Shown here in pieces: positions 225 to 45,701 of a stretch of DNA of 45,854 bases (position 1 is the first letter of the stretch; every line of letters starts with the position of its first letter). This stretch comes from a virus: IMG/VR virus record IMGVR_UViG_3300045988_140252, one strand, 5' to 3'. The notes beneath the pieces were generated by a model. The model made no database searches. It saw only the letters and a list, made by a program, of their open reading frames with translations, and was not told the origin of the DNA. Both the position numbers and the translations under genes were made by a program.

Positions 225-527
225 CTATTTTTTGTTTAATAAAACTTGTATTAGCCGTTCTTTCTCTTCGAGAAGTTTCTTTAAATAAGCAATTTCTTCT
301 TCTTTATTAAGATTAGTGCCCGTATTATTTTCCGAAGGATTATCAAAGAAAATACCGGGAGAAACATTAAATACCTCTGCTATGGCTTCAAGAGTTTTAG
401 TATTAGTTGACCCTGCTCTTATCATAGACTGAATAGTACTTTCATCCTTACCGATTCGGGAAGCTAATTCCCTAATTTTGATTTTGTTTATTTCGCATAA
501 ATCTCTTATAAGTAATAAATTAGCCAT
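225..527 (-). CDS. XRE/CI-like helix-turn-helix transcriptional repressor
   Basis: 100-aa ORF with an N-terminal HTH (IRELASRIGKDESTIQSMIRAGSTNTKTLEAIAEVFNV) and a C-terminal helical tail. It is divergent from the rightward early operon. Confidence 0.75.
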   Translation of the reverse strand: MANLLLIRDLCEINKIKIRELASRIGKDESTIQSMIRAGSTNTKTLEAIAEVFNVSPGIFFDNPSENNTGTNLNKEEEIAYLKKLLEEKERLIQVLLNKK

Positions 528-533
528 AATTTG

Positions 534-611
534 ATATAGTATTTACAATAATTAACAGGAATTATATAGCACATTATGCTAAATAAATCTATATTTGTGG
601 TATAAATATAG
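534..611. promoter_or_regulatory. Genetic-switch region: repeated ATATAG half-sites, an inverted repeat and a -7 box
   Basis: ATATAG occurs at 534-539, 564-569 and 606-611, and CTATAT at 589-594. An 8-bp inverted repeat pairs CTATATTT (589-596) with AAATATAG (604-611). TATATTTG (590-597) fits the Bacteroides -7 consensus TAnnTTTG upstream of the ATG at 640. Confidence 0.5.
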
Positions 612-639
612 AAATAAATAATAGATTTAATGTGATGCT

Positions 640-888
640 ATGGCAAAAAAAACTTTAAAAAGAAATCAAGACGGTGAGAAACTAAGAATGTATCTTTTGA
701 CTTTACCACTGAAAGATTCTTCTAAAATGGTGGTAAAATTGGCGGAAGCATGTAAGGTTCCACTACATACCGTTCATAATTGGCGGGGTGGATTGTGTCG
801 TATTCCTGAACTTGCAAAGGATAAGATCGAGGAAGTAACAGGTGTAAAAATCTTCCATAGTGAAAATCTTCCTCCAAAAAGTGAATAA
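640..888 (+). CDS. Cro-like small DNA-binding protein; first gene of the rightward early operon
   Basis: 82 aa with an HTH-like segment (VVKLAEACKVPLHTVHNWRGG). It is divergent from the repressor across a 112-bp switch region. Confidence 0.5.
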   Translation: MAKKTLKRNQDGEKLRMYLLTLPLKDSSKMVVKLAEACKVPLHTVHNWRGGLCRIPELAKDKIEEVTGVKIFHSENLPPKSE

Positions 889-30500: not shown

Positions 30501-31900
30501 TGGAAAAAGCGGTATTAAACCAAAGTATCACGCAGGAAGCCGCCGACGCCTATATGCTGGAAGTTGAAGCGGAGCACGCCGCAGAACTTCTGGAGATAAA
30601 CCGTACCTACCAGGATGATATTGCCGCTTTGGAAATTACCGGTAAACAAAAGCGTATAGAAACAGCGACAGAAGCAGCGGATGCCGTTCGTGAGTCTGAA
30701 ATGAAGTTATTACGCGACCGGGCAGCCATTGCTCAAAAAGTACGTGAAATAACTTCCGTTCCGGTTGGAATAAATGGTATGCAGGAGATGCACCGGAAGC
30801 AGGTTCAGGATGTAGAAACGACTTATAATGCCATAATTGAGATAGCGAGACAGGCGGGAATCTCTACCGTGAATCTGGAAGAACAAAAGAACCGGGAGAT
30901 AAACCGGCTGAATTATGAATACCAGAGTAGTATTTACCAAATCCAGGCAGAAATCGGGCTTTCCTGGCAACAGCAACACGAACAGGAACTGGCACGCTTA
31001 AAACACTTGCATGATGAAGGATTGATAGATGAAAAGAAATATCAGGTCCTTCGTTTAAAGGAAGGAAAGAAAAATATACTGAAATATTTTCAATATTATT
31101 CCGCCCTTTCTTCTTCCATGGTAAATTCAATACAAGAAGCGGAAATCGCTTCGGTAGAAGCTAAATATGCCGTACTTATACAAGAGGCGGAAAATAACGG
31201 TGAAGATACTGCCGCCCTGGAAGAAGAGAAGGAAAATAAGAAATTGGAGATTCAGAAAAAATACGCTGATCTACAATTTGCGATGAAGTGTTCCCAGATT
31301 ATAGCTGATACGGCAGTTGCTATAATGGAAACCCATGCAAGTCTCGGAGGTTGGACGCCTGCCGCTATTGCAGCGGCCGCGATAATGGGAGTTACCGGTG
31401 CCGCCCAGCTTGCACTTGCAGAAGTTGAACGGGAAAAGGTGAAAAATATGTCTGTAAGTAATACAGCAGGCAGTAAAAAAGTAACCGCCGAACGTGTTGT
31501 TTCCGGTTCTTCCGGTGGTGGGTATTCGGAAGGAGGTTACACCGGCCCCGGCGGACGTTATGAAGTGGCCGGCGTTGTTCATAAGGGGGAATATGTGGTA
31601 CCACAACCGGAAATGAATAATCCTAAAGTAATCGACGCCGTTAGTACTATCGAGGCGATCAGGCGGCAGCGTACCAATGTCAACCCGTTACCACAGAATC
31701 CGGGTGAATATTATGAAGGCGGTTACGTCACTTCTCCTGCAGGGGATTCTTCTTACCGGGAGTTCCTGGAAGCTGCAAAGGAGCTTCGTGCCTCCTGTGA
31801 GGCTATCAAATTGATAAAGGCCTATATCGTTTATCAGGATTTGGAGAAGGCCAAAGAAACTATAGATAATGCCCGCGACACCTTTACACGCGGAAAATAA
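27593..31900 (+). CDS. Tail tape measure protein
   Basis: 1435 aa. TP901-type core (AAILGTTKKSIKDLTDEARRLGATTSYTAAQVTALQIELAKLGF), hydrophobic segments and very long coiled coils. Confidence 0.85.
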   Translation: MAKLKPDYIEWVLTLNASDAQKEIHNLSEKNKELRDSNKDLKKKMTELIATGKAGGKQWKNLTDRLNSNNKAISENNKKIAECEKRLDKTTMSANQLARKANALRKELRDTVKSLQPEKYAALEKELKEVEKAYGQATKKAEGFGGSLLSLNKIKTVLAGVFVTIGAMITGQIVGGLRDAISTIIEFEKKNSTLAAILGTTKKSIKDLTDEARRLGATTSYTAAQVTALQIELAKLGFFKEDIKAMTPSVLKFAKAVDTDLASAATLAGATLRIFNLDAEDTERALSTMAIGTTSSALNFEYLNSAMSTVGPVANSFGFTIEETIALLGALANSGFDASSAATATRNILLNLADSSGKLALALGGPVNNLDDLIKGLKKLNSEGIDLNKALELTDKRSVAAFNTFLNGTDTVLALCDAVTGAEDAFNAMSEEMGDNVQGALNRLSSTIEGVVLRFYESKGILRDLIDLVTLMVEGVGGMIDMFNKWGVVTYTVTAYLVSYYGGLKIATMWHARFKTATLASVVAEKAHAVQLYISRAATLTYAAAQALLHKNTTRCTAALRLMRIELLKNPYTALLALLVAAGVAIYQLAKKTEQASAAMKAHQEVVKKVNEEYSNQEAKIKTLVAAINDENLSNYTRKQRLAELKELIPDYNAELNEEGRLINNNKEAIDQYLVSLEKQIKLKAYQEELEELYKKKRNLESQESEQSDAYWDTRQQNTLSGYNRNSLTAKISRLFGTEKEANQLKALQTTQKDLAGIESAIAQINNDILKTEATATSLTGTNKENINTETSLIKKLEAEKKKVQEQWAEDSEANIAKKNKEIERIDAEIKRLNELGKVKKKAEAGEYKNTETDATLKPLEIEHEKRMFLIKQNREKENKTEAQYILEGTAENLRYYQERIDALQKLEAKTPAQKKKLLDEIHKIETEAQTAIFTETGKQEDARIKLVQEKRDERLKIETAYYNVQKDTMEKAVLNQSITQEAADAYMLEVEAEHAAELLEINRTYQDDIAALEITGKQKRIETATEAADAVRESEMKLLRDRAAIAQKVREITSVPVGINGMQEMHRKQVQDVETTYNAIIEIARQAGISTVNLEEQKNREINRLNYEYQSSIYQIQAEIGLSWQQQHEQELARLKHLHDEGLIDEKKYQVLRLKEGKKNILKYFQYYSALSSSMVNSIQEAEIASVEAKYAVLIQEAENNGEDTAALEEEKENKKLEIQKKYADLQFAMKCSQIIADTAVAIMETHASLGGWTPAAIAAAAIMGVTGAAQLALAEVEREKVKNMSVSNTAGSKKVTAERVVSGSSGGGYSEGGYTGPGGRYEVAGVVHKGEYVVPQPEMNNPKVIDAVSTIEAIRRQRTNVNPLPQNPGEYYEGGYVTSPAGDSSYREFLEAAKELRASCEAIKLIKAYIVYQDLEKAKETIDNARDTFTRGK

Positions 31901-31909
31901 GTAATCATT

Positions 31910-34063
31910 ATGCTAAAGATTAAGACGAACAAAGGTTATCTGGATTTAGGGGGTGACTTTACCGTACAGATTGATGAAAAATCCCCCGTCATGAACGACC
32001 GGGGATCACAAACCGTACCGGTCACGATTCCATGTACCGGCAACAATGCTAAAATAACCGGCTTTGCCCACCGTCTCGATATGGGTATAAAGCCGATGAA
32101 TGAAGATCAGGCATGTACGGTATTGGACGGGGTATATAAACGTACCGGAAAGATAAATATCGTTTCTGCCGGTAAAAAAGAAGGTATTACCCTTAACATC
32201 GGCTTTGACAATTCGGAAGCCTACAGCGCATGGAAAGCAAAAAAATTAAATGCTATTACATTACCAGTGAAGGAGTATAGCAGCGTTAATTCTCTTTGCG
32301 CACATTTGCAACAAGTTTTAGGAGGTTATCAGACTGATTATGCCGTATTTCAGATTATGACCGGTAACGATTCGAAAGATAACCAGTTTTACCCCAAATA
32401 CCTAAATTATATTACGCCTGTTTCAGAAGGAAGCAAAGTTTATCGGTTACGTTATCAAGCAAGAACAGAAACATTTTTAGTAAATGGAACTCCGACTGCA
32501 GTAACACTTCCGGAAGGTTACGGCGTGACAGCCTTTTTATATGTATGGCGTGTACTGGAACTTGTTTTTTCCGAATTTGGATATACAATAATGGAAAATC
32601 CTTTTAAAACAGATAAACAACTTTATAACTTGGTAATCCTGAATAATGCGGCCGACTGTTGTGTTAAAGGAAAACTTTCTTACGCGGATTTGATGCCGGA
32701 TTGTACGGTCGAGGAGTTTTTAAACGCCCTTTATGTGCGTTTCGGACTTGTTTATAATGTTTCTTCCGATACGAAAACGGCCACTTTAAGACTGATCCGG
32801 GATATTGTGGATGATGTTCCGGACATTGATTTATCCCGTAGCCTGACAGACGAACCTTTAATAACTTATGAAACGGCCCGGCAAATGAAGTTATCGGCCA
32901 AAACTTCCTTTACCGGTGCGGCCCCCTCTGTTGAAAGACTTGAAGATTACTTGAAAGATCAGAAAGTCGCAAGGTTAACTAAAGTTGATGTATCTAAAAG
33001 GGTGATACATCTAAATTATGAGGAAACAACAGGACGGTGGTTTAAATGGGATGAAGATAATAACCGCCTTACTTATTCTTCATCGAGTTTCTTTTCCTGG
33101 GATCGGAAAACCGACAATATCGAAGATAACGAATTAACCAGCGACGACGAATGCGTTCCAATGGATTTTGCCCCGAATGATATTCTTTCCCCTCAATATC
33201 TGGCCGATTACGTGCACCGTTACACGTATCTTAAAACTTCCTCTAATAATAACGATGAAGACTCGGAGAAAGTAGAAACGCCGTTATCCTTCGTGTTTGC
33301 ATTTACGTCTTCCCAAAATAGTAAATATCCTTTCGGTTCTGTGTTACCTTACACCTCTGACGCCGAAGAGGTTATATTAAGAGACGGAAGCAAGCATACA
33401 ATGTCGCTATTTTTTCAATATGATAATGGCCTGTTTTTTAACTTCTGGAGGAAATACGACGCTATATTAAGACATTCATTCAATAAGATAGAGGCAAACG
33501 TTTTGTTACCGGTTCACCGGCTTACGGGTATGGATATCTTAACACCGGTAATACTTCGAGGACAATATTTACTTTTTGACGGGCTTTCTTATTCTCTTCC
33601 GGCAAATAAGATTCTACCCGTTGATCTGACATTAAGAACACTCCGGTTGATTGGTCCGTACGATTTGGATAAGGAACAGGAAACACCCGTTTTTGGTTCC
33701 AGGCTTTTTACGTGGGAATTTATAAGTTCAAATATAGAAACAGCCAAAGAAAATGAAAGGAACAGGATTTTACAACAGGCGAGGGATGAATGGAACAAAA
33801 GGCCGACCGCTGTGAACGAAATGAAATCAATAACTTACTCGCTTGACGGATATACAACTCGTAATGATGATAAATACTTGGTTGAAAACTATCCCCAGGA
33901 AGCGGGAATTACATTACAAAGGAACTATAAATGTAAAGCGACAGCAATAATAAGTATTTACTACGAGCCTGGAAGTTTTACTCCCGGTACATATCGGGAT
34001 GTTACGTATGAATCCGAATTTGAATATACAGATACTTTTGTTTCTGTTGTCTATTCCGGTTAA
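31910..34063 (+). CDS. Tail tip / baseplate protein (assigned by position)
   Basis: 717-aa ORF directly after the tape measure gene. Confidence 0.45.
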   Translation: MLKIKTNKGYLDLGGDFTVQIDEKSPVMNDRGSQTVPVTIPCTGNNAKITGFAHRLDMGIKPMNEDQACTVLDGVYKRTGKINIVSAGKKEGITLNIGFDNSEAYSAWKAKKLNAITLPVKEYSSVNSLCAHLQQVLGGYQTDYAVFQIMTGNDSKDNQFYPKYLNYITPVSEGSKVYRLRYQARTETFLVNGTPTAVTLPEGYGVTAFLYVWRVLELVFSEFGYTIMENPFKTDKQLYNLVILNNAADCCVKGKLSYADLMPDCTVEEFLNALYVRFGLVYNVSSDTKTATLRLIRDIVDDVPDIDLSRSLTDEPLITYETARQMKLSAKTSFTGAAPSVERLEDYLKDQKVARLTKVDVSKRVIHLNYEETTGRWFKWDEDNNRLTYSSSSFFSWDRKTDNIEDNELTSDDECVPMDFAPNDILSPQYLADYVHRYTYLKTSSNNNDEDSEKVETPLSFVFAFTSSQNSKYPFGSVLPYTSDAEEVILRDGSKHTMSLFFQYDNGLFFNFWRKYDAILRHSFNKIEANVLLPVHRLTGMDILTPVILRGQYLLFDGLSYSLPANKILPVDLTLRTLRLIGPYDLDKEQETPVFGSRLFTWEFISSNIETAKENERNRILQQARDEWNKRPTAVNEMKSITYSLDGYTTRNDDKYLVENYPQEAGITLQRNYKCKATAIISIYYEPGSFTPGTYRDVTYESEFEYTDTFVSVVYSG

Positions 34064-34106
34064 TCCCGTCCTTTATTCTTCCTTTGATAAACCCAACTTT
34101 TGCACC

Positions 34107-34319
34107 ATGGAAAAGCAGAATAACATCGTACTTGCCCCGTGCGCCACACAGGTAACGGAGCTTTATAATTTATGGAGGGAAAACCATACGGGCCGGCTTA
34201 CGGACTTTTATAAGTTTATGGTAAACCCTTCGGCTGCCAGGGATCGCTTTATATCCTCTCTGGAGGCGCAGCATGAGTTAATCGGAAGTTTTATCGTAAC
34301 CAAAACAGCAATACAATGA
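34107..34319 (+). CDS. Small hypothetical protein (start trimmed to the internal ATG)
   Basis: The track ORF 33999-34319 overlaps the upstream gene. The Met at 34107 (MEKQNNIVLAP...) gives 70 aa. Confidence 0.45.
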   Translation: MEKQNNIVLAPCATQVTELYNLWRENHTGRLTDFYKFMVNPSAARDRFISSLEAQHELIGSFIVTKTAIQ

Positions 34320-35473
34320 GTGCCAGCGACGAAGCTTTAAAGGTGAACATATATCCGACGGGAAATGCCTTTACGCGTAATCCTATTTTTCTGTCTGTAT
34401 CATCCTATTCTATGGCAACATACAGTATCAGAATGAATAATGAGGAAATTTTCAAAGGAAACGGAATCGGGGAATTTCGTGTTAATATAGCCGAGATTGT
34501 CGAAACCGGAATAGCAAGTACACCGATTTTACCGGATAATACGGAGCCTCTGCTTGCCGTTTCCGGTTTGTCGGCCAAAGTAACTATACATGTGGTTAAT
34601 GAGGGGGAAGAAGAATATAACCTGTCTTTTACAGCCTGGAAAGGGGGAATTTCCAAGAAAGAGTTTAAACGTCTTCGAAATATGGGGACTGATATATTTT
34701 CTTTGAAGTTCTTGAATGAATCCTGCAATTTCTTTTTTACCACCCGGAGCAATGACTGGCGTATAACGATGCGCGAGACGGAACTTTACCCGCTCTGTTT
34801 CATCTATCCGGGACACGAACTGAAAATAACGGAACTTCTTACCGGTCAAAGCCTTGCAGTACCAGGTACGGCAGGGAATTTCTACGCCTTGAACCTGGAG
34901 GCCGTAAGACTTAAATTCTTTACCGATTACGGGGTACTGGCTAACCTTTTTGACGTGTATAGCGGTGATACGTTTGCTCTCCGGATCGGGATCGAACAAA
35001 GCCCGACGGTTCGCGAGCGTTACCGGCTCCGGTTCCTGAACAGTTACGGGACTTACGAAGTGTTTTCCCTGGAAGGCGAGGCAAGCGTAACTCCCGGCAT
35101 GGATGAAGACGAAGACGCTGTTTTCCGGCGTTACGATGAAATTACCGATGATTATTATTCGGATCGCATACGGACGGAGATACAGGAAGCTGTAACGATT
35201 AAGACGGGATTCAAACGCCCGCAGGAAATACGTTTTCTTCTTGATCTGCTTTCCTCTGATGATGTTTACCTGGCAGGTTACGGCCGGGAAGAAATAAAAG
35301 TCATTCCTTCGGCGGAAGAGTTTTCTTACCGTGTCCGTCCGGACGCACCGCAGAACGTGACGTTAAAACTCATGTTTGCCGACAAAGAGTCCAACTGGAC
35401 GGGAGAAATTACGGAAAGCGGCTACCGGAAACCGAGGGTTCATTCCAAAGAGTTTAGTAAACAATTTAATTAA
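34316..35473 (+). CDS. Tail tip / baseplate protein (assigned by position)
   Basis: 385-aa ORF between the tape-measure-proximal gene and the fibre gene. Its start overlaps the upstream stop (ATGA). Confidence 0.45.
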   Translation: MSASDEALKVNIYPTGNAFTRNPIFLSVSSYSMATYSIRMNNEEIFKGNGIGEFRVNIAEIVETGIASTPILPDNTEPLLAVSGLSAKVTIHVVNEGEEEYNLSFTAWKGGISKKEFKRLRNMGTDIFSLKFLNESCNFFFTTRSNDWRITMRETELYPLCFIYPGHELKITELLTGQSLAVPGTAGNFYALNLEAVRLKFFTDYGVLANLFDVYSGDTFALRIGIEQSPTVRERYRLRFLNSYGTYEVFSLEGEASVTPGMDEDEDAVFRRYDEITDDYYSDRIRTEIQEAVTIKTGFKRPQEIRFLLDLLSSDDVYLAGYGREEIKVIPSAEEFSYRVRPDAPQNVTLKLMFADKESNWTGEITESGYRKPRVHSKEFSKQFN

Positions 35474-35482
35474 TGTATCTAT

Positions 35483-38400
35483 ATGGCAACACAGGAGTAT
35501 ATCGATGATCTTATTATAGTCATTGAAACCGCGGAGGACGCGGAAAGCGTTACTAACCAAATGGTGGCGGCGGTTCTTGGCTTCTTGAACGAACACCTGA
35601 AACTGGTTTCCCAGGGTAAGGAAGTCGAGGCGGAGGAAACCGCCCGCATTGCCGCCGATGCAGCATTACAGAAGGCTATAGACGCCGTTTCTTTACGTAT
35701 CGACCGACTTGTCGGTAACAACGCTTCGCAGGCAATCGACAACTTTAACGAGATTCTTAATTTTCTGAACGGGCTTAAAGACAGTGATTCGCTTGCCGCA
35801 TTGCTGGCTGATATTAACGCCCGTATCGGCAGTGAAGACGGTTCGGAGAGTGAAGACGGTTCCCTTTGGGGAAAACTGAAAAGTTTGTCCCAGGATATAA
35901 CCAGTTGTTCCGATGACATAAGCACATTGCAGATAGACCGTGACAAAATGAAACAGGGGTTACAGGAAACGGACGGGCGTCTGTCTTCCACCTTTACCAA
36001 TGTAAACAACCTTTTGAACGCCGGTACCGTTTATAGTGATCTGTCGGGGGTATTTGCAACATTGAAAACGGCGGGAAAGATTAACAATGTACGGAAAAAC
36101 GGTGTAATCCTTTCTTTTCTTACTGCCGACGGCTGGGTGACGAAACAATTTAGAGGTAATCCGGACACGGATTTTGAAAATGTCGAAAAGTGGGAGGATT
36201 TCGGCAGCGGCGGTTCGGCCGGCGGGAATACTTATAACGTAACCGGTAACATACCACTTGCAGAAGGTTTCTATACTCTTGCTTCCGCCATTGCCGCGGT
36301 ACCGGAAAAACAACGCGGCCAGGGACGTGTTATCACCTTTGAAACATCGCTCGGTAAATGGGAGACGTGGCAATTTACCGGAACCGATCCGGCTGTCTGG
36401 GATCAGGAGGCGAGCTGGGAAGAGTTCGGCGGCAAAGGAACGGTAAAGAGTGTAACGGTAAACGGCGAGAAGCAGACGCCGGACGCGGCCGGTAATGTGA
36501 ATGTAAACGTGGATATCCTGGAAGTGGACGAAACTTTGTCCTTAGATTCCACCAATCCGGTAGAAAACAAGGTTGTAACCGCCCGTTTTAACGAGGTGGA
36601 CGCTTCCACGCTGTTCAATGTAAATGCGGAGGTAAGCGAGGATGAAACATCCGTCCGTCTGTCTTTCCAGAATAAAAGCGGTGCGGAAATTACCGCTGTA
36701 GATATCCCGGCCGGTTCCGGTGGAGGTTCCGGCGAAACGGTGGCTACTAAAATTGTATTAAATGCGGCTGTAGATAACACCATAATCAAGGAAGGCGGAA
36801 ACGCCCGTCTTACTTATACGTACGATCACCAGTACACCACGGGGGACGAAAAAGGGGAATCCACCGGGCAAAAGGCAGATATAACCGTTACGATCAGGCG
36901 TGGAACAACTACCATGTATTCCCAAACAGTCAGCGATGTTTCTAAAGGTAGTTACGAACTGGACCTTTCAAGTTACTTGCTTGTGGGAAACACGGATATT
37001 TACGTAGTGGCAACCACTACCGATCCGACTACCGGCAAGAAACAAACCCGACAGGCATTTACATCCGTAAAGGTTGTCAGCCTTTCCCTTACCAGCTCTT
37101 ATAATCTGGCCGGGGCCATAGCCGCTGGCGGTTATACGCTGGCCGATACGATTAATATTCCTTATGCCGTCAACGGTTCCGGAACAAAGGTCGTCACGCT
37201 TTATCTGAACGGCCAGCAACAGAACGCGCACACCATTACAAGATCGGGAACGACAAACGGCAGTTTCAGTTTGTCCCCTTCTTCGCTTGTAACCGGTCGG
37301 AATACCGTTCAAATGGTTGCCGAAATGGAGGCTTCCGCCGATCTTGTGTTAAAATCCGAAAGTATCTACATTGATATCCTGAAATCCGGAGGATCGGCAC
37401 CGTTCATCGGCACGATGATAAGTTTTCCGGACGGTCGTATTTTTACGGAGGATCATCTTGTTCCGCGCCTGGAAGCGGGGCAGTACGAACAGGTAAAATT
37501 TGACTTTGTGGCTTATGATCCCGCCGCGACGCCGGCCAAAGTGGACGTTTACCGGGACGGGGTGAAAACGCAGTCTGTCAGTGTGGCGCGTACTACGCAA
37601 ACATATACCAACCGTTTTACCCAGCAGGGTGAAATCAATATGAAATTTAAGACGGGAGCCACGGAATACCCGTTTTATATCGACGTGACGGAAAGCGGGA
37701 TCGACTTGCAGGAAACTACCGCCGGGCTTGTACTGAAACTTTCAGCAGCCGGGCGGAGTAACAGTGAATCCGATCCGGGAGCCTGGGATTATGGCGACAT
37801 ACATACAACGTTTGCAGGTTTCGACTGGAACAGCAACGGCTGGACGGGTGACGCCCTGAAACTTACGGGAGGCGCGAAGATTGAAATCGGGTACCAGCCG
37901 TTCTCCACAGATGCGACCACTACCGGGGCTACCTATGAAATGGAAATTCTTTGTTCATCGGTAACGGACCGGCAGGGAGTGATACTGGACTGTATGGCCG
38001 GCGATATCGGTTTCCAGATGACAACGGAGCAGGCCCTTATGCGTGTTTCCGGCGGTACGGAAGTAAGTACAAAGTTTGCAAGTGATATGAACCTGAAAAT
38101 AGCCTTTATTGTCGGGTCCAAGGCTGGCAAACGGTTGCTGGAACTTTATGTAAACGGAATCCGTTGCGGGGCTGTGCAGTATGGGTCTACCGAAGGACTA
38201 CTGCAGGCGGAACCGGTAAACATCCGTTTGTTCAGTGATACGGCGGATGTGGAGATCAGGAATTTCCGTATTTATAACCGTGCGCTTACGGATGATGAAG
38301 AATTAAATAATTACATGGTAGACCGTACTACGTCGGACGAAATGGTCCTGTTATTTGAAAAAAACGATGTTACGGGGGACAACGGTACGGATATCGACAT

Positions 38401-41400
38401 AGACAAGTTACGCGCCCAGGGAAAGGCGGTTATGCGAATTGTCGGCGATGTGAACCTTGTCAACGCCACCAATAACAAGAAATTCGAGGTACCGGTCGAT
38501 ATCTATTTTTATAGCCCGTACGGTAAGGAGTATGATTTTGTAGCAAGGAATATCGGTCTAAGAATACAGGGTACATCATCCACCACTTATCCGCGTAAGA
38601 ATTACCGTCTTTATTTCTTGCGCCTGGAAAAATACGGTACCACGCTGGAAGTTAACGGCGTGGATGTGCCGTCTCTTGAATACAGTTTCAAACCGGGAGC
38701 ACGGCCGATCAGTATATTCTGTTTGAAAGCGGACTTTTCCGATTCTTCCGGTACACATAATACCGGTGCGGTGCGTATTGTGAACGACGTTTGGAAGAAG
38801 TGCAGGTGGCTGACACCGCCGCAGGCTGCATATAAGGGGGAATATGACGTACGTATAGGCGTAGACGGTTTCCCTATGGACCTGTTTTATGACAACGACG
38901 GCACCGGTGCGAATACTTATCTGGGAAAATACAATTTCAATAATGAGAAGTCGGAAAGTGCGATTATTTACGGTTTTGAAGGAATTGAAGGATTCAACGA
39001 CGAAGCGGCCCTGAACGGGCAGCGTAACAAATGTATCTGCCTGGAGTTCTTGAATAACTCCGAGGCCCTTTGCTTGTTCGGGACTACCGATATGTCTTCT
39101 TTTGATGATGCGCTGGAATTTCGTTTCAAGGCAGATACTACCTGGGCGGATGCACACGAGGACGACAAGGCGGCAGTTACAAGGCTTTGGAACTGGATCG
39201 ATTCATGTAAGGATGATCCCGCCAAGTTCCTGGCGGAATATAACCAGTATTTCGGTAATGACAGCCCGTTTGCATGGTATCTGATTACCGATTATTTTAT
39301 GGCCGTGGATAACCGGGCAAAAAACATGATGCTGGCGACTTGGGATTCTCTGATCTGGTATTTCCTTCCTTACGATATGGACACATTGTTCGGTGTGCGT
39401 AATGATTCGGTATTGAAATACGAATATACCATTACCCACGAAAGTTTTGACGATAGTATCGGTAGTTATGCTTTTGCCGGTCATGATTCCGTTTTATGGG
39501 AACTGGTACGGTCTTGTCCGGACAAATTGCGGGAAGTGGCGGAAACCTTGCGTAGTAATATGAGCCTTGAATATGTCCTGCAAGTATTTAACGAGGAACA
39601 AATGGGTAACTGGTGCGAGCGGATTTATAACAAGGATTCGGAATATAAATATATCCTTCCGCTTACCGAGGGGGTGACAACCAGCAGCGGAACCAGTTAT
39701 TATAATTATCTGTATGCCTTGCAGGGAAGCCGTTATGCGCACCGTACTTATACCATTCAGAACCGTTTCGCCCTTTTGGATAGTCAGTATGTAGCCGGTA
39801 CTTACCGTCGTGACAGCTTTGCGGCTTATTTCGGGTACAAGTTCGGCAGCGATAACCGGAAAATTCGGATTACGGCCTCCGAACGGTACTATTACGGGTA
39901 CGGGTACACGTCCGGAACACCGCACCAAAGCGCGGTACTTGCAGAAACGACCGGTAGTGTGGTGGAACTGACAATGGACACGGATTTAATAGTAAACGAT
40001 CCGCAATATTTCTACGGTGCAAGCCGTATTCGCGGGCTTGATCTGACGGATGTAAGCCACGCCATTGTCGGCACGTTGAACCTGAACAACTGTACGGCCT
40101 TGCGTGAACTGAATGTTAGCTGTGAGGCCGGACAGATGACACTTAACGCCCTTCTGGTGGGTAATTGCCGTAACCTTCGAAAACTCGACATTTCCGGGCT
40201 TAAATCCTCTTCCTTTACCGGTATGGACCTTTCAAGCAATACCAAACTTGAAACCTTTCTGGCCGGTGATACATCCCTTACCGGTGTGACATTCGCCGGC
40301 GGTGCGCCTCTGGCCGTTTGCGTCCTTCCCGGAACTTTACAGACGCTCGAACTCCGATACCTGAGCAAACTAACCAATGCAGGGCTGCAGCTGGAAGGTA
40401 CGGCAAATATCACGCGCCTTGTGATTGATAACTGTAGCCTGATCGACTGGAACACGTTGTTACAGCAATGCAGTGCGACCAGCTATCTACGAATTACCGG
40501 TATAGATATGGACGGGAACGGTAATTTGCTTCGCAGGCTTATGACAATGGGCGGCGTTGATGAAGACGGGGGAAACGTGCAGACGTGCCGCCTGGTAGGT
40601 ACGTACCGGCTCACCCAGTCCATGTCGGATGAAGAGTACGCCGCCACTTGTGCACATTTCCCGGAACTGAATATCATTCAGCCGCAGTTTGTCGGCATAA
40701 AAATAGATCAGACGGTAGGAGACGGGGAAAAGATTACGAATCTGGATAACTCTACCGGATATGACTATAATACTGAATTTACCCCGTCTTCCCATATATT
40801 GGAAGTGTTGTCGAAAAGACGTTGTATTCTGGCTAAAAAGACGGCGGAGGGTGAAATGACCTGTTATCCGCTTCATGATGAGAACCGGAATAAATACGGG
40901 GATAGTGACAGCGTGGAGAACGCCACGGATGCAGTATTAACCGGATCGGAAGGTGAAGTTTACGTATATGAGCCTCATTACTGGTACAAGGGAGTAACGG
41001 ACGTGCTGAATCAGTGTCTTTACGGTTTTATTTCAAGCAATGAGGATGCGCCGGCAGCGGCAGGGTACACCAGTGTAAAACTTACCCGCGAAGAGCTGGA
41101 GGTAACGGAAGGGATCGGGATTCGTAAGAATACGGATTACACGACCCTTGAAGAGGCGAAGAATGAATACGAATCCGGATCGTTCGCCCTGGTGGACGTG
41201 CGGGATTACAAGCAGGTCCGTTTCCCCGGTCTGGCTTCCACTCTTTACGGGGCTGCATTTATAGATGATACGGGCAAAATAGTAAGTCGGGTAAGCGTTT
41301 CAAACGCGAACGGTTTTATTAATGGTATGTACCTGTTTTGTGCTGTTCCCGCAGGGGCTACTTTCCTGGCCTTTACTTTCCTTAATTCGGCGGCCTTCGA

Positions 41401-42271
41401 TTTCGTTTTACTCACAACGTCGGAAAGTGTGGAAGCGATCGAGCCGGACTGGGTAGAGCATACGGAATGCCTGGGCGGTGCTTATGAAGCTTACTTGATT
41501 GATGATGTATTGCGTTCTGTCAGTGGTGTTTCAAGTGTAGGAACCATTTCACAGAGCCAGGCAATCAAATACGCCCAGAACAGGGGCAAAGGTTTCCAGC
41601 TGTTCGACTGGGAGATGCACAAGGATGTGGGTAATCTGCATTTCTTTAAATACGGTAATACCGATTCGCAGGGAGTTTGCGGATATGGAACAAGTAATTA
41701 CCAAAAAGTGACGGGCCTTACAAATGCACTGGGGATGCGTGATACGGTTTCTTATTATAAGGAAAAAGGCGGTTCCAATCCACAGGCGGAAGGTGCTTAC
41801 CGGGACGGTGTAAATTATCAGTCCGTCAATGTACTGGGATATGAAAATTTCCAGGGAAATAAGGCGGAATGGTTGCAGTATGTCACGGTAAACAAGACGG
41901 CAGCGGACGGAAGGTGGTTTATTACCATGCCGGACGGAACGGAACGCGTTGTACAGGGAATTACTGTTTATAATGCGGATATTTATCCTACCCACATGGT
42001 TTGGGGCCGGTATATGGATTTGATTGCAGCCAAAGAAGGCGGTTCCACTTCTTCACATTGGTTCGACAGGTTCTATGTGGGTACCGGGCTTTCTCGTGTG
42101 GTGTATCGGTCGTACAACTACGCGTGCGCGTTGGGCGGTGTTTCGTATGCGGCCGCGAATAACGATTCATCGAGCTCGGGTGCGTACATCGGCGTTCGGC
42201 TTGCCTTCAGGGGCATAATACGCTGGGCGGGCAGCGTCGCGGCCTTTAAAGCCATAAATCAGGCTGATTAA
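35483..42271 (+). CDS. Giant tail fibre / receptor-binding protein; DGR target (LamG-like, CotH-like, LRR and C-type-lectin-fold VR domains)
   Basis: 2262 aa. N-terminal coiled coil. LamG-type signature LELYVNGIRCG...FRIYNRALTDDEEL. CotH-like motifs GLRIQGTSSTTYPRKNYRLYF and WYFLPYDMDTLFG. Leucine-rich repeats LNLNNCTALRELNVS...CRNLRKLDISG. The C-terminal domain contains the VR. Confidence 0.8.
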   Translation: MATQEYIDDLIIVIETAEDAESVTNQMVAAVLGFLNEHLKLVSQGKEVEAEETARIAADAALQKAIDAVSLRIDRLVGNNASQAIDNFNEILNFLNGLKDSDSLAALLADINARIGSEDGSESEDGSLWGKLKSLSQDITSCSDDISTLQIDRDKMKQGLQETDGRLSSTFTNVNNLLNAGTVYSDLSGVFATLKTAGKINNVRKNGVILSFLTADGWVTKQFRGNPDTDFENVEKWEDFGSGGSAGGNTYNVTGNIPLAEGFYTLASAIAAVPEKQRGQGRVITFETSLGKWETWQFTGTDPAVWDQEASWEEFGGKGTVKSVTVNGEKQTPDAAGNVNVNVDILEVDETLSLDSTNPVENKVVTARFNEVDASTLFNVNAEVSEDETSVRLSFQNKSGAEITAVDIPAGSGGGSGETVATKIVLNAAVDNTIIKEGGNARLTYTYDHQYTTGDEKGESTGQKADITVTIRRGTTTMYSQTVSDVSKGSYELDLSSYLLVGNTDIYVVATTTDPTTGKKQTRQAFTSVKVVSLSLTSSYNLAGAIAAGGYTLADTINIPYAVNGSGTKVVTLYLNGQQQNAHTITRSGTTNGSFSLSPSSLVTGRNTVQMVAEMEASADLVLKSESIYIDILKSGGSAPFIGTMISFPDGRIFTEDHLVPRLEAGQYEQVKFDFVAYDPAATPAKVDVYRDGVKTQSVSVARTTQTYTNRFTQQGEINMKFKTGATEYPFYIDVTESGIDLQETTAGLVLKLSAAGRSNSESDPGAWDYGDIHTTFAGFDWNSNGWTGDALKLTGGAKIEIGYQPFSTDATTTGATYEMEILCSSVTDRQGVILDCMAGDIGFQMTTEQALMRVSGGTEVSTKFASDMNLKIAFIVGSKAGKRLLELYVNGIRCGAVQYGSTEGLLQAEPVNIRLFSDTADVEIRNFRIYNRALTDDEELNNYMVDRTTSDEMVLLFEKNDVTGDNGTDIDIDKLRAQGKAVMRIVGDVNLVNATNNKKFEVPVDIYFYSPYGKEYDFVARNIGLRIQGTSSTTYPRKNYRLYFLRLEKYGTTLEVNGVDVPSLEYSFKPGARPISIFCLKADFSDSSGTHNTGAVRIVNDVWKKCRWLTPPQAAYKGEYDVRIGVDGFPMDLFYDNDGTGANTYLGKYNFNNEKSESAIIYGFEGIEGFNDEAALNGQRNKCICLEFLNNSEALCLFGTTDMSSFDDALEFRFKADTTWADAHEDDKAAVTRLWNWIDSCKDDPAKFLAEYNQYFGNDSPFAWYLITDYFMAVDNRAKNMMLATWDSLIWYFLPYDMDTLFGVRNDSVLKYEYTITHESFDDSIGSYAFAGHDSVLWELVRSCPDKLREVAETLRSNMSLEYVLQVFNEEQMGNWCERIYNKDSEYKYILPLTEGVTTSSGTSYYNYLYALQGSRYAHRTYTIQNRFALLDSQYVAGTYRRDSFAAYFGYKFGSDNRKIRITASERYYYGYGYTSGTPHQSAVLAETTGSVVELTMDTDLIVNDPQYFYGASRIRGLDLTDVSHAIVGTLNLNNCTALRELNVSCEAGQMTLNALLVGNCRNLRKLDISGLKSSSFTGMDLSSNTKLETFLAGDTSLTGVTFAGGAPLAVCVLPGTLQTLELRYLSKLTNAGLQLEGTANITRLVIDNCSLIDWNTLLQQCSATSYLRITGIDMDGNGNLLRRLMTMGGVDEDGGNVQTCRLVGTYRLTQSMSDEEYAATCAHFPELNIIQPQFVGIKIDQTVGDGEKITNLDNSTGYDYNTEFTPSSHILEVLSKRRCILAKKTAEGEMTCYPLHDENRNKYGDSDSVENATDAVLTGSEGEVYVYEPHYWYKGVTDVLNQCLYGFISSNEDAPAAAGYTSVKLTREELEVTEGIGIRKNTDYTTLEEAKNEYESGSFALVDVRDYKQVRFPGLASTLYGAAFIDDTGKIVSRVSVSNANGFINGMYLFCAVPAGATFLAFTFLNSAAFDFVLLTTSESVEAIEPDWVEHTECLGGAYEAYLIDDVLRSVSGVSSVGTISQSQAIKYAQNRGKGFQLFDWEMHKDVGNLHFFKYGNTDSQGVCGYGTSNYQKVTGLTNALGMRDTVSYYKEKGGSNPQAEGAYRDGVNYQSVNVLGYENFQGNKAEWLQYVTVNKTAADGRWFITMPDGTERVVQGITVYNADIYPTHMVWGRYMDLIAAKEGGSTSSHWFDRFYVGTGLSRVVYRSYNYACALGGVSYAAANNDSSSSGAYIGVRLAFRGIIRWAGSVAAFKAINQAD
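42093..42210 (+). repeat. DGR variable repeat (VR)
   Basis: 118 bp inside the last ~60 codons of the fibre ORF. It matches the TR at 102 of 118 positions, and all 16 differences fall at TR adenines. Confidence 0.9.
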
Positions 42272-42376: not shown

Positions 42377-42494
42377 CTCGTGTGGTGTATCGGTCGAACA
42401 ACAACGCGAACGCGTTAGGCGGTGTTTCGTATGCGAACGCGAATAACGATTCATCGAACACGAATGCGAACATCGGCGTTCGGCTTGCAAACAA
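42377..42494 (+). repeat. DGR template repeat (TR)
   Basis: Non-coding copy of the VR, rich in AAC/AAT when read in the VR frame (SNNNANALGGVSYANANNDSSNTNANIGVRLANN then a stop). About 32 adenines by hand count. Confidence 0.9.
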
Positions 42495-42642
42495 TTAGGA
42501 TAAAGAAAAAGCGCATAAGCCTTAAAAATTGGCGTACAACAGTGGGGACGTGTCCCCGGCGTGGAGCCAAGAGGAATGAGCCTCGCCAACAGCAGCCGTT
42601 TACGGCTGGAAAGGGGAAAAATAAAGCGCAGGGCAATGGGGT
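42377..42642 (+). ncRNA. Putative DGR template RNA (TR plus a 148-nt spacer with two hairpins)
   Basis: The TR is followed by hairpins GGGGA-CGTG-TCCCC (42544-42557) and CAGCCG-TTTA-CGGCTG (42593-42608) before the RT start. No ORF is credible here. Confidence 0.55.
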
Positions 42643-43998
42643 TTGGTAGGAAGTTTTTTCGAAGAAGCCCGGCCCGGGGAATTGAAGGCTGATTTAATTA
42701 TCATGTGGAGAGAAGATAATATTATAGAAGAGATTGTCGAGGACGCCAATATAGAGGACGCCATAAAAACGGTATTGCGCAAAAGAAGACGAAAGCGCAG
42801 CTTTGCCGGGCGTCGAATACTGGCGGATGTCCCGAAGGCGGTAGAGAGGATCAGGCAGCGGATCAGGAGCGGGCGGTTCAAGCTCGGAGGATATCGGGAA
42901 ATGACCGTAGACGACGGGCCGAAAGTAAGGATCGTACAATCGGTTTCCCTGGAGGACAGGATCGTTCTTAACGCTGTTATGAATGTGGTGGACCGGCATT
43001 TGAAAGTACGTTTTATCCGGACTACTTCCGCATCCATTAAAAACAGGGGAACGCATGACCTTTTACAGTATATCGTTAAAGATATAAAGGATGATCCCGA
43101 AGGAACCCTGTTCGGGTACCAGTTCGATATAACGAAATTCTATGAGAGCGTAGACCAGGACGTTTTGCTGGATGCAGTGAAAAGGATGTTCAAGGATAAA
43201 ATATTGATCGGAATCCTGGAAGAGTGCATCCGCATGATGCCTAAAGGCGTAAGTATCGGGCTAAGATCATCACAGGGGCTTTGTAATTTGCTTCTATCCA
43301 TTTACCTGGATCACCGGTTAAAGGATCAGGAGGCGGTAGCATATTATTACCGGTATTGTGACGATGGTCTGGTGCTTTCCGGTAGTAAGAAATACCTTTG
43401 GAAGGTTAGGGATATCATTCATGAACAGACCCGGAAAGCCCGCCTGGAGATTAAAAGCAATGATACCGTTTTCCCGATCACCGAAGGTATCGACTTTCTG
43501 GGATATGTAACCCGCCCGGATCATGTACGGTTAAGGAAGCGTAACAAACAGAAGTTCGCCCGCAAGATGCACAAGATTAAAAGCAAGAAACGCAGGCAGG
43601 AGTTAACCGCCTCATTTTACGGGCTTACAAAACATGCCGATTGCAAGAACTTATTTTATAAACTAACAGGAAAGAAAATGAAAAAATTAAAAGATCTGGG
43701 CTACAAGTACAAGCCTAAAGACGGACGGAAACGATTTACCGGGGCAAGGATCAAGTCGCCCGAACTGATGAACAAGGATGTGATCGTACTTGATTATGAA
43801 AAGGACGTTCCGACGAAAAACGGAAACCGGACTGTTATAAAGCTGGAACTCGACGGCAAGGAGAGAAAGTATTTTACCAGCCTGGAGGAAACCCTTTTCA
43901 TTTGTGAATCAGCGGCAAGAGACGGAGAACTGCCTTTTGAAGCACATTGCGAAGGTGAAGTAAGTGAAAAAGGATTGATAATTATACATTTTACTTGA
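42643..43998 (+). CDS. DGR-type reverse transcriptase with a C-terminal extension
   Basis: 451 aa. RT motifs LEDRIVLNAV and SIKNRGTHD; the DGR-typical IGLRSSQGLCNLL; catalytic YRYCDDGLVL. About 115 aa lie beyond the thumb region. The alternative start is the ATG at 42703. Confidence 0.85.
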   Translation: MVGSFFEEARPGELKADLIIMWREDNIIEEIVEDANIEDAIKTVLRKRRRKRSFAGRRILADVPKAVERIRQRIRSGRFKLGGYREMTVDDGPKVRIVQSVSLEDRIVLNAVMNVVDRHLKVRFIRTTSASIKNRGTHDLLQYIVKDIKDDPEGTLFGYQFDITKFYESVDQDVLLDAVKRMFKDKILIGILEECIRMMPKGVSIGLRSSQGLCNLLLSIYLDHRLKDQEAVAYYYRYCDDGLVLSGSKKYLWKVRDIIHEQTRKARLEIKSNDTVFPITEGIDFLGYVTRPDHVRLRKRNKQKFARKMHKIKSKKRRQELTASFYGLTKHADCKNLFYKLTGKKMKKLKDLGYKYKPKDGRKRFTGARIKSPELMNKDVIVLDYEKDVPTKNGNRTVIKLELDGKERKYFTSLEETLFICESAARDGELPFEAHCEGEVSEKGLIIIHFT

Positions 43999-43999
43999 A

Positions 44000-44494
44000 A
44001 TGATACGGATTTATGCAGACAGCAAGGCGGAACCGGTAAGATGCACCAACCGCCGCCGGGGAATCTGGCGTATTACGTGGGATTACCAGGAAACAGAGAC
44101 ACCCGAAGGAGTGCAACGTAGTTACATGGAAGAGACGTTCGATCATCTACCCGCACTGGCAGAAATCAAGGCGGTTATTAATGAATGGTATAACCGGAAG
44201 ATAACCGACACGATCGAAAGCGGGTACGTATGGAACGGCCTGAAAGTCTGGCTTTCCATGGAGAACCAGATGAATTATAAGACGGCGTACGATCTTGCCT
44301 TGCAGACAGGCGGGGAAAACCTTCCTGTTACTTTCAAGCTCGGGGAAGAAGACAACCCGACGTTTTACGAGTTTGCAAGTATGCAGCAACTACAAGAGTT
44401 TTACACCGGTGCCGTGAAACATATACAGGAGACACAAAAGGAAGGCTGGGAACTTAAAAAGGCGATAGACTGGAGTGTTTATACGTTGGAGTAG
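44000..44494 (+). CDS. Hypothetical protein, DUF4376-like (phage fibre-associated family) by pattern
   Basis: 164 aa. The pattern YVWNGLKVWLSMENQMNYKTAYDLAL...PVTFKLGEEDNPTFYEFASMQQLQEFYTGAVKHIQ resembles DUF4376-type proteins. It is not helical-bundle Avd-like. Confidence 0.35.
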   Translation: MIRIYADSKAEPVRCTNRRRGIWRITWDYQETETPEGVQRSYMEETFDHLPALAEIKAVINEWYNRKITDTIESGYVWNGLKVWLSMENQMNYKTAYDLALQTGGENLPVTFKLGEEDNPTFYEFASMQQLQEFYTGAVKHIQETQKEGWELKKAIDWSVYTLE

Positions 44495-44513
44495 AAAAGC
44501 GAAAGGGGGAAGC

Positions 44514-44529
44514 GGGAAACACGTTTCCC
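44514..44529. terminator. Bidirectional hairpin between convergent genes
   Basis: GGGAAA-CACG-TTTCCC lies between the stop at 44494 (+) and the integrase stop at 44535 (-). Confidence 0.45.
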
Positions 44530-44534
44530 CTGAT

Positions 44535-45701
44535 TTAAAAAAGTCCTTCAAAATGTTTTGTCTCTTCATGTACTGGCAACGCTTCTCCTTTTAGATATTT
44601 ATTTGTGGTAGAAATATCCGAATGTCTTGCTTGATCGCGTGCAATAACAATCCCGGCTGAATTTGCCAAATCGCGAATACCGGTATCTTTTAGGGAATAA
44701 AACTGGTAGGAGTCAGGGAATTTAAGTAACGTACGTACTTTATTGAAATAAGTCCTGTAAGTGCGTGGTGTCGATTTCTCTTTTGAGGGTTTGAAATCTT
44801 TCCCGAATAAGTAACAATCATTGCTATAATTGAATATTTTAAGTTCGAGCATAGATTTTATTAAGATATCGTTTAATCCTACCATACCGTCTTTGCGGTT
44901 TTTAGATATACTTGAAGGGATAAATACTTTTTGATCCTTAATATAGATATCGGATAATTGAATATTTGACAGCTCATCTGGACGAATAAGGGTATAATAT
45001 GCAAACTGGCAAAGTAGGAGAAAGTACGGATTATTTTTTTCTAAATATGTTCTAAGCTTCTGTAGATCATTGGCGGACAATGCGTCCCGTTTCTTTTTGT
45101 CTTCCGACAATGATTTGATATTCTCTACGGGGTTTTTGTCTATATACTGTTTTTCTAATAACCAGCTGCCAAAAGATGATAACCAGGTTCGATAATTATT
45201 CCTTGTGCGAGCTGATGAATCACGATCAATAAGAATATAATCCAAGAAATCACTTGCATAAGTCTTATCAAACTGATAAATATATATTATAGGATTGAAA
45301 CGCTTTTTGTTGTATTCTGATAACACCCTAATTCTTTTTTTATAGTCTGCAAAGGTACTTTCTTTAAACACTTTGGACTTATGGAATTTAATTAGATATT
45401 TATTGTATAATTCCACAACATCATCGAACAATGTATATTGGCGGGAATTTGAAGTATCTGCCCATGGATTCCAACCAGATAAGAGTTGCCGACTTATATT
45501 TGCAATTAATTCCGTAGCCCTCTTTTTCCGGACACTAATTTTATCTATGCTATCCAGCATATATTTTTTTCGTTTCATTTTTTGTTCCAAAGGATCATAA
45601 GCTTTGAAATCAATATACCAATTTTTCCCGGTGTGAAGTTTGGGCAAAGTGTAGGGTATTATACTATTTAATGAGGCACCCCGTCTTTTAGTTGAACACA
45701 T
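44535..45701 (-). CDS. int: Tyrosine-type site-specific integrase
   Basis: 388 aa. The C-terminal catalytic region holds RDQARHSDISTTNKYL (H-x-x-R ... Y). The N-terminal region is arm-binding/SAM-like. It lies next to the att repeat. Confidence 0.9.
   Translation of the reverse strand: MCSTKRRGASLNSIIPYTLPKLHTGKNWYIDFKAYDPLEQKMKRKKYMLDSIDKISVRKKRATELIANISRQLLSGWNPWADTSNSRQYTLFDDVVELYNKYLIKFHKSKVFKESTFADYKKRIRVLSEYNKKRFNPIIYIYQFDKTYASDFLDYILIDRDSSARTRNNYRTWLSSFGSWLLEKQYIDKNPVENIKSLSEDKKKRDALSANDLQKLRTYLEKNNPYFLLLCQFAYYTLIRPDELSNIQLSDIYIKDQKVFIPSSISKNRKDGMVGLNDILIKSMLELKIFNYSNDCYLFGKDFKPSKEKSTPRTYRTYFNKVRTLLKFPDSYQFYSLKDTGIRDLANSAGIVIARDQARHSDISTTNKYLKGEALPVHEETKHFEGLF

Follow-up and report, generated by a model that had tools for sequence, protein, structure and literature searches.

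The viral DNA stretch analyzed here (IMG/VR record IMGVR_UViG_3300045988_140252; 45,854 nucleotides (nt), in the following called the window) carries one uninterrupted open reading frame (ORF) of 6.8 kb at 35483..42271 on the plus strand, which starts with ATG and encodes 2262 amino acids (aa) according to the ORF list and its translation. A first-pass annotation made from the sequence alone had named this ORF, with exactly these coordinates, as the target of a diversity-generating retroelement (DGR), and the pair of variable repeat (VR) and template repeat (TR) together with the reverse transcriptase (RT) confirmed it. Taking all evidence together, we consider it likely that the protein serves receptor binding at the distal tail of a temperate siphophage of Bacteroides/Phocaeicola which resembles BT-TP2, with a tip varied by the DGR and with an active CotH-like domain. 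The architecture of giant CotH-type DGR targets is already known and has been published repeatedly. The additions made here are incremental and concern the invariance of the active site, the layout as a cassette plus tips, the domains similar to carbohydrate-binding modules (CBM), and the finding that the cassette has moved between phages with unrelated backbones.

The CotH-like domain was recognized by its family profile and by its fold. Pfam CotH (PF08757) was matched with 31.1 bits by the whole protein and with 35.4 bits by the isolated segment, at a cut-off of 23.8. The AlphaFold2 (AF2) model of aa 951–1520 reached a predicted local distance difference test score (pLDDT) of 72.6, with values above 90 in the catalytic core, and a predicted template modeling score (pTM) of 0.70. 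Using Foldseek, this model was found to match the CotH structures of B. cereus in the PDB, 5JDA with E 7.5e-11 (probability 1.0) and 5JD9 with E 1.5e-10, with template modeling scores of 0.64–0.66 normalized to CotH. No other PDB structure was matched significantly, the next being other kinase-like folds (PI3K, HipA) with E > 0.2. Sequence searches of the PDB gave no CotH chain, whether the query was the entire protein, the CotH segment (phmmer) or a 13-sequence profile, so that Pfam and the fold search were needed to establish the link to CotH, and an NCBIfam search yielded nothing useful. The first-pass annotation had proposed a CotH-family-like region from two motifs, GLRIQGTSSTTYPRKNYRLYF (aa 1025–1045, nt 38555–38617) and WYFLPYDMDTLFG (aa 1292–1304, nt 39356–39394). 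This proposal was borne out by the Pfam score above cut-off and by B. cereus CotH as the only PDB fold match, and all motifs quoted in that annotation were found at their places in the translation, with the leucine-rich repeat (LRR) block beginning at aa 1516 (nt 40028). Compared to CotH of Bacillus (5JD9/5JDA; PF08757), the phage domain shares the atypical kinase fold and the aligned K, E, D, N, D and D residues, at 12–13% identity. It is, however, larger (~490 versus ~360 aa), with insertions, and is embedded in a tail protein of 2262 aa, while CotH is a free-standing coat protein.

The candidate active site comprises K1039, E1212, D1276 (nt 39308–39310), N1281, D1298 (nt 39374–39376) and D1300. 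Invariance was determined after aligning the segment from the window to the top 150 representatives of clusters formed at 50% identity, i.e. in 151 sequences. Nineteen positions, mostly polar or charged, were 100% invariant, namely Q1029, G1030, S1033, Y1036, N1040, K1082, D1084, N1093, N1151, K1156, G1164, E1188, D1276, K1280, N1281, D1298, D1300, N1307 and Y1390. The catalytic residues of CotH were taken from the literature: in B. subtilis the substitution of either the catalytic Asp D228 or the metal-binding Asp D251 abolishes kinase activity (PMC7821199). In the sequence of the 5JD9 chain, which was recovered by probing the PDB with a CotH query, the equivalents are D224 and D247, located within NFDGFVHNY and PWDYDATWG. 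These two stretches were paired by hhalign with VDNRAKNM and PYDMDTLFG of the phage protein, placing D1276 opposite D224 and D1298 opposite D247 in what is a weak alignment (E 0.11–0.4). The mapping of residues is based on the fold match combined with this consistent alignment, because the hhalign scores taken alone are not significant. Identical in both families at a conservation of at least 90% were K1039, N1093, G1129, F1199, E1212, D1276, N1281, D1298, D1300, G1304 and G1309, and the residues common to the phage and CotH families include Lys/Glu/Asp/Asn/Asp, a combination as would be expected in a kinase. Because both residues whose loss inactivates CotH map to the invariant D1276 and D1298, the CotH-like domain is probably an active enzyme, a nucleotide-dependent phosphotransferase. 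Within the reach of the weak alignment the catalytic residues of CotH are hence conserved in the phage family, and of the several adhesive or enzymatic activities suggested earlier for this fibre the enzymatic one gains support from the pattern of conservation.

Pseudo-enzymes usually lose their catalytic residues, which speaks against a different view of the domain, namely that of a catalytically dead scaffold or ligand-binding module in a fibre with several adhesive modules and no enzyme. We regard this as rather unlikely, since the 19 invariant positions include the equivalents of both CotH-inactivating residues (PMC7821199), but some points speak for it: the flanking LamG, LRR, CBM-like and C-type lectin modules are all of the binding type, extracellular ATP is missing, the match to the Pfam CotH profile covers just its central third, and the CotH invasins of Mucorales were reported as host-receptor ligands (PMC9973265).

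We are aware of several observations which weigh against an active enzyme on a receptor-binding tail protein, or against single steps of this interpretation. The CotH sequence match is confined to profile positions 134–221 of 322 (88 positions), and a full-length sequence relationship to canonical CotH was not found. The hhalign comparisons gave E 0.4 against the 5JD9 sequence and E 0.11 against a 121-sequence CotH profile, which is consistent but non-significant. A kinase carried by the virion, of which the target is a putative component, would have no obvious supply of ATP outside the cell. The three ORFs between tape measure and target (31910–35473) gave no Pfam or PHROG match and showed no recognizable Dit/Tal signature. 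For two of the proposed modules the Pfam scores lie just below the gathering score: Laminin_G_3 (PF13385) was matched at aa 811–939 over profile positions 14–149 of 151 with E 5.2e-6 and 27.1 bits (cut-off 27.6), and LRR_EndoS (PF23952) with 20.8 bits by the whole protein and 26.0 bits (E 1.2e-5) by the segment (cut-off 27.9). Finally, no Avd-type accessory gene was recognized by Pfam or PHROG, including the 75-aa ORF at 42422–42649 which overlaps the TR.

Two of the invariant residues differ from canonical CotH. K1280 (39320–39322) occupies the place of an invariant His in the catalytic loop of CotH (H228 of the chain), and K1082 (38726–38728) that of an equally invariant Asn in the N-lobe. 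These differences hint at a different substrate or a different mode of nucleotide binding. Kinase-fold enzymes such as Fam20B and POMK phosphorylate sugars, and the CotH-like domain might likewise act on glycans, as a sugar or polysaccharide kinase which modifies capsule or lipopolysaccharide during adsorption. Its position between the carbohydrate-type modules LamG, EndoS-type LRR and CBM6/35-like would fit such a role, as would a substrate site altered by K1280 for the canonical His, K1082 versus Asn and N57S-type differences. Nevertheless, we found no experimental precedent in the CotH family, there is no evident source of ATP at the cell surface, and the fold search revealed no similarity to known glycan kinases, which makes a glycan kinase distinctly unlikely.

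The DGR itself is genuine and active in the BT-TP2-like lineage. VR and TR form a pair of 118 nt with 16 mismatches, of which 16/16 fall on TR adenines (16 of 32 A) and 0 on other bases. The TR is 100% identical between the window and BT-TP2, while the VRs differ at adenine-templated positions. At the population level, 77 unique homologues with at least 85% identity to the window protein over the last 314 residues were compared, and all positions with an entropy of 1 bit or more (11/11) were TR-adenine codons; the mean entropy amounted to 1.48 bits for TR-adenine codons, compared to 0.01 for the remaining codons of the VR and 0.04 for positions beyond it. The related DGR of Hankyphage is experimentally active, and the homologous target is treated there as a tail fibre (PMC12135933). 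In the record of BT-TP2 (PQ571279) a third VR-like copy, 91% identical to the TR, is found at the left end (122–238), and the first 20 nt of the VR recur at the right end (45205–45224). These extra copies seem to have arisen during assembly from a phage stock with heterogeneous VRs; no third VR/TR copy is present in the window.

The VR-bearing end of the target had been assigned to a C-type-lectin fold by the first-pass annotation, which was confirmed. The AF2 model of aa 1701–2262 reached a pLDDT of 91.3 and a pTM of 0.91, and Foldseek matched the last ~240 aa with TaqVP (5VF4, E 4.4e-9, probability 1.0) and Mtd (1YU4, E 2.5e-3). The C-terminus furthermore matches phrog_5302, annotated 'tail protein', and the motif GNKAEWL lies at aa 2125–2131 (nt 41855–41875), 73 aa before the VR. 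TaqVP and Mtd (1YU0-4) likewise combine the C-type-lectin fold with a C-terminal VR and a GNxxEW-type motif ahead of it. In contrast to the target, they comprise only ~380 aa and lack the cassette of LamG, CotH and LRR. For the ~320 aa preceding the lectin tip, a part missed by the first-pass annotation, the model predicts beta-sandwiches of the CBM6/35 type (aa 1701–2020), for which Foldseek returned the CBM35 module of Xyn30D (E 7.8e-4) as well as structures of CBM6, CBM35 and CBM51. The coordinates of all parts are collected in Table 1.

Table 1. Parts of the DGR target protein and of the adjoining DGR in the window.
Feature	Position (nt)	Strand	Basis
Complete DGR target gene, putative tail receptor-binding protein, 2262 aa	35483..42271	+	ORF, BT-TP2 gp44 match, phrog_14959
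Backbone-specific N-terminal region, aa 1–248	35483..36226	+	Unmatched in Hankyphage p00
Beta-rich region, aa 249–740	36227..37702	+	phrog_14959 and phrog_24896 matches, composition
LamG / concanavalin-A-like lectin domain, aa 741–950	37703..38332	+	Pfam Laminin_G_3 near cut-off
CotH-like atypical kinase fold, aa 951–1440	38333..39802	+	Pfam CotH, AF2 and Foldseek, invariant residues
Beta-strand connector, aa 1441–1515	39803..40027	+	AF2 strands at segment residues 495–561
LRR block, aa 1516–1700	40028..40582	+	LRR_EndoS, LxxLxLxxC periodicity
Beta-sandwich, CBM6/35-like domains, aa 1701–2020	40583..41542	+	AF2 and Foldseek
C-type-lectin-fold variable domain, aa 2021–2262	41543..42268	+	Foldseek TaqVP/Mtd, phrog_5302
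VR, aa 2204–2243 of 2262	42093..42210	+	VR/TR comparison
TR	42377..42494	+	Direct repeat 284 nt downstream of VR
DGR reverse transcriptase	42643..43998	+	RVT_1 E 6.8e-14; phrog_1423 E 1.4e-89; 53% identical to Hankyphage RT
DUF4376 ORF	44000..44494	+	Pfam DUF4376 E 9.9e-9; phrog_19239; 46% identical to same-position Hankyphage ORF

An exhaustive profile search detected the CotH-like segment in at least 5479 clusters formed at 50% identity when the limit was set to E <= 1e-3, and in 1950 when it was lowered to E <= 1e-30. In the top 150 clusters nearly all proteins comprised 1200–2900 aa. When each part of the window protein was used as a single-sequence query against the 150 representatives, LamG was found in 146, the CotH-like domain in 150 and the LRR in 126 of them. 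The connector between CotH-like domain and LRR was detected in 20, the sandwiches following the LRR in 20–26, and a lectin tip like that of the window in 15. Judged from these sequence comparisons, LamG-CotH-LRR is one conserved cassette, which occurs much more widely than DGR targets do, and not an assortment of independent modules, and the swapping of modules is confined to the N-terminal ~248 aa, which match the phage backbone, and to the region after the LRR. The description of the fibre as a mosaic by the first-pass annotation hence applies to its ends only. In a set of 21 diverse full-length members, BspA-type LRR_5 arrays formed the end of nine (E down to 6e-219) and DUF6273 occurred in two, while the lectin tip was limited to the closest relatives. 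A full-length family profile matched only BspA-type LRR structures in the PDB, and these matches reflect the tips of other members, not the window protein. The CotH-like fold is shared by 22 viral models of the BFVD, several of which are already annotated 'CotH kinase protein'; the models belong to sipho-, myo- and crAss-like phages as well as to Bacillus phage G. Non-DGR relatives, namely gp353 of Bacillus phage G, the crAss-like cr52_1, cr124_1 and cr272_1 and the giants with BspA-type LRR tips, share LamG-CotH-(LRR), but their C-terminal tips differ from that of the window and consist of BspA-type LRR_5 arrays, DUF6273 and others.

The finding of CotH inside a hypervariable phage fibre, called unusual by the first-pass annotation, is in fact widespread, as seen from the clusters and BFVD models mentioned above, and no fewer than four published descriptions exist. 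A study by Wu 2018 (PMC5758913) defined a phage-linked 'category f1' of ~2000-aa targets with CotH and Laminin_G_3, and Roux 2020 (10.1101/2020.04.01.020958) a viral target of 2284 aa with a CotH-like kinase (PC_00012). Benler 2021 (PMC8008677) reported for phages the fusion of a CotH kinase domain with a hypervariable C-type lectin and termed it 'currently unstudied', and Macadangdang 2024 (10.1101/2024.11.15.621889) a Bacteroides 'domain group 3' of more than 2000 aa with CotH active regions (5JDA), carbohydrate-binding motifs and LRR. All class features of Wu f1, Roux PC_00012 and Macadangdang group 3 are shared by the target, and nothing essential is different. Our literature search found no functional study of phage CotH domains.

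The counterpart in Hankyphage had been described as a large ORF with a C-type lectin (Benler 2018). The target of Hankyphage p00 (BK010646, 31489–38226) is 45% identical over aa 249–2260 with the same order of modules, and this match extends to more than 20 Hankyphage relatives. As in the window, the VR is found at the very end of the target, and TR, RT and an ORF of the DUF4376 type lie behind it. In contrast, the N-terminal ~248 aa are unrelated and the TR identity is 83%. By these comparisons the window target appears to be the orthologue-class counterpart of the Hankyphage DGR target. Only three window proteins have homologues in Hankyphage p00, namely the RT, the product of the DUF4376 ORF and, beginning with aa 249, the target; Hankyphage is a Mu-like transposable phage, while the window phage carries a tyrosine integrase and is otherwise unrelated. 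The target without its anchor, the RT and the DUF4376 ORF therefore seem to form a cassette common to Mu-like and tyrosine-integrase phages with otherwise unrelated genes. The DUF4376 ORF travels with this cassette, possibly as an accessory factor or a fibre-associated protein.

The remaining parts of the protein were assigned with varying clarity. In the N-terminal region, aa 1–175 appear helical, possibly as a coiled-coil stalk or anchor, followed by the first copy of a small beta domain. The composition is of the helix type with few Pro/Gly, a simple heptad scoring gave elevated values for aa 43–84 and 127–182, and aa 72–173 weakly match a 'fibritin neck whisker' PHROG with E 1.7e-4. The N-terminal coiled coil of the first-pass annotation is thus weakly supported. 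Only one of the 150 representatives contains aa 1–150. By eye, two tandem copies of a small domain with the pattern G.vItF.T..G.W...QF.G....W..FG were seen at 36050–36430 (aa ~190–316), and this motif also occurs in the relatives P0157, P0159 and P0170; BLAST self-comparison did not detect it. The beta-rich region at aa 249–740 probably consists of Ig-like or CBM-like sandwiches. T, V, S, G, Y and N account for 50% of the residues of aa 331–740, a part detected in 53 of the 150 representatives, and aa 547–591 gave a marginal CBM2-type PDB match (E 0.084). Of the beta-rich repeat region proposed before, the beta-rich character was confirmed by this composition, whereas BLAST self-comparison of aa 150–760 showed no internal repeats. 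The LamG assignment was supported by the near-threshold Pfam score and by the high frequency among relatives, 4 of the 21 diverse members matching Laminin_G_3 at E<1e-3 (best 5e-7). The LamG-type strings, YVNGIRCG (aa 889–896, nt 38147–38170) and FRIYNRALTDDEEL (aa 928–941), together span aa 889–941. Similarly, the LRR block is supported by a visible LxxLxLxxC periodicity and by relatives which reach E 1.5e-12, at a Pfam score slightly below the cut-off.

In the window the target gene is the end of the tail module. The order of genes is tape measure (27593–31900; PhageMin_Tail E 9e-33 and many tape-measure PHROGs), three ORFs of 717, 106 and 385 aa, target, TR, RT, DUF4376 ORF and tyrosine integrase. 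The three intervening ORFs presumably form the tail tip or baseplate, the docking site for the N-terminus of the target. This position right after the tape measure and tail-tip ORFs argues against a non-structural role as an effector kinase directed at the host, in which the diversified lectin would choose targets inside the cell or in the envelope. Manipulation of host signalling had been proposed for PC_00012 (Roux 2020, 10.1101/2020.04.01.020958), where a contact between VR and kinase was suggested as well, and an intact kinase site would find ATP inside the cell. However, the backbone-specific N-terminus behaves like an attachment domain, the tips of other family members are adhesin arrays of BspA-type LRR, as typically found in surface binding, and no signal peptide was evident when the N-terminal sequence was inspected by eye, so that we consider an effector very unlikely. 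As side observations on the genome, GC content is ~0.47 except for islands of 0.32–0.39 at 15–18 kb and 0.39–0.41 at 25–28 kb, and the AT skew is unusually high (0.26–0.30) within the tape-measure gene (29000–32000).

Several lines of evidence speak for the integrity of the gene. Its closest relative is gp44 (XPO95574.1) of the phage BT-TP2 (PQ571279), where it is annotated 'hypothetical protein'. BT-TP2 is temperate, has been cultured on B. thetaiotaomicron BG12, is ~95% identical over most of the window and has the same flanking tape measure, RT, DUF4376 ORF and integrase. The target aligns with gp44 collinearly and without gaps over the full 2262 aa (95% nt / 96% aa), and phrog_14959 (profile length 2494, function unknown) spans it nearly end to end. 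Hankyphage, at 45% identity, and giant relatives, at 22–57%, show the parts in unchanged order. In a different part of the genome, window 226–866 aligns with the right end of BT-TP2 (44197–44840) at 74% identity only, a match which suggests that the arrangement or permutation of the two records differs and that a regulatory region has diverged.

An assembly chimera or a decaying pseudogene, with frameshifts in related genomes as its possible signature, was considered as well. Metagenome protein sets contain many C-terminal fragments of the target with recurring lengths of 471, 587, 765, 865, 903 and 980 aa. The fragments came from a set of proteins below 1000 aa, and full-length relatives were taken from the representative search. 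Two such loci were inspected. A prophage copy in Phocaeicola vulgatus carries a 1-nt indel near aa 1790 (locus positions 8980–9001), which splits the target into 1790 + 471 aa, and one metagenome scaffold has a gap of 100 N inside the LRR block (scaffold positions 8759–8858). The recurring lengths correspond to the next internal Met codons. The fragments are accordingly explained by the frameshift, by the gap in the scaffold and by gene callers which begin anew at a Met within the ORF. The ORF is intact here and in cultured BT-TP2, with the same order of parts in relatives, which ruled out a chimera. Collinearity with independent complete genomes (BT-TP2, more than 20 Hankyphage genomes) refutes both forms of this explanation, and we assign it a practically vanishing probability.

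For the receptor-binding protein which we prefer, the following mode of action is proposed. The helical and backbone-specific aa 1–248 would anchor the protein to the tail tip, followed by a beta-rich stalk, the LamG/CotH-like/LRR cassette, two CBM-like sandwiches and the C-type-lectin tip. The DGR, via TR and RT, rewrites ~11–20 codons of the tip at adenine-templated positions, and the resulting population of tips may bind different ligands of the host surface, possibly helped by the LamG, LRR and CBM modules. In analogy to CotH in spore-coat assembly, the CotH-like domain might act while virions are assembled in the cytoplasm, where ATP is available, and might modify itself or further proteins of the tail. 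Most Hankyphage proteins were reported from mass spectrometry of lysates (PMC12135933).

The near-identical copy in the cultured phage BT-TP2, together with the conserved site, makes it possible to test directly which role a kinase fold plays on a phage tail. In the human gut, elements of the Hankyphage type belong to the most widespread phages of Bacteroides, and their DGR target is thought to set the host range. The occurrence of the cassette in Mu-like and in integrase-type phages shows a DGR-armed receptor-binding module moving between unrelated phages. As a more far-reaching and tentative proposal, which we hold possible with less than even confidence, LamG-CotH-LRR could be a catalytically active, virion-associated phosphotransferase common to thousands of giant tail proteins of sipho-, myo-, crAss-like and jumbo phages. 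If true, it would represent an unrecognized enzymatic step in tail assembly or in the engagement of the host surface, and the DGR-diversified lectin would be one of several interchangeable targeting tips which deliver the enzyme.

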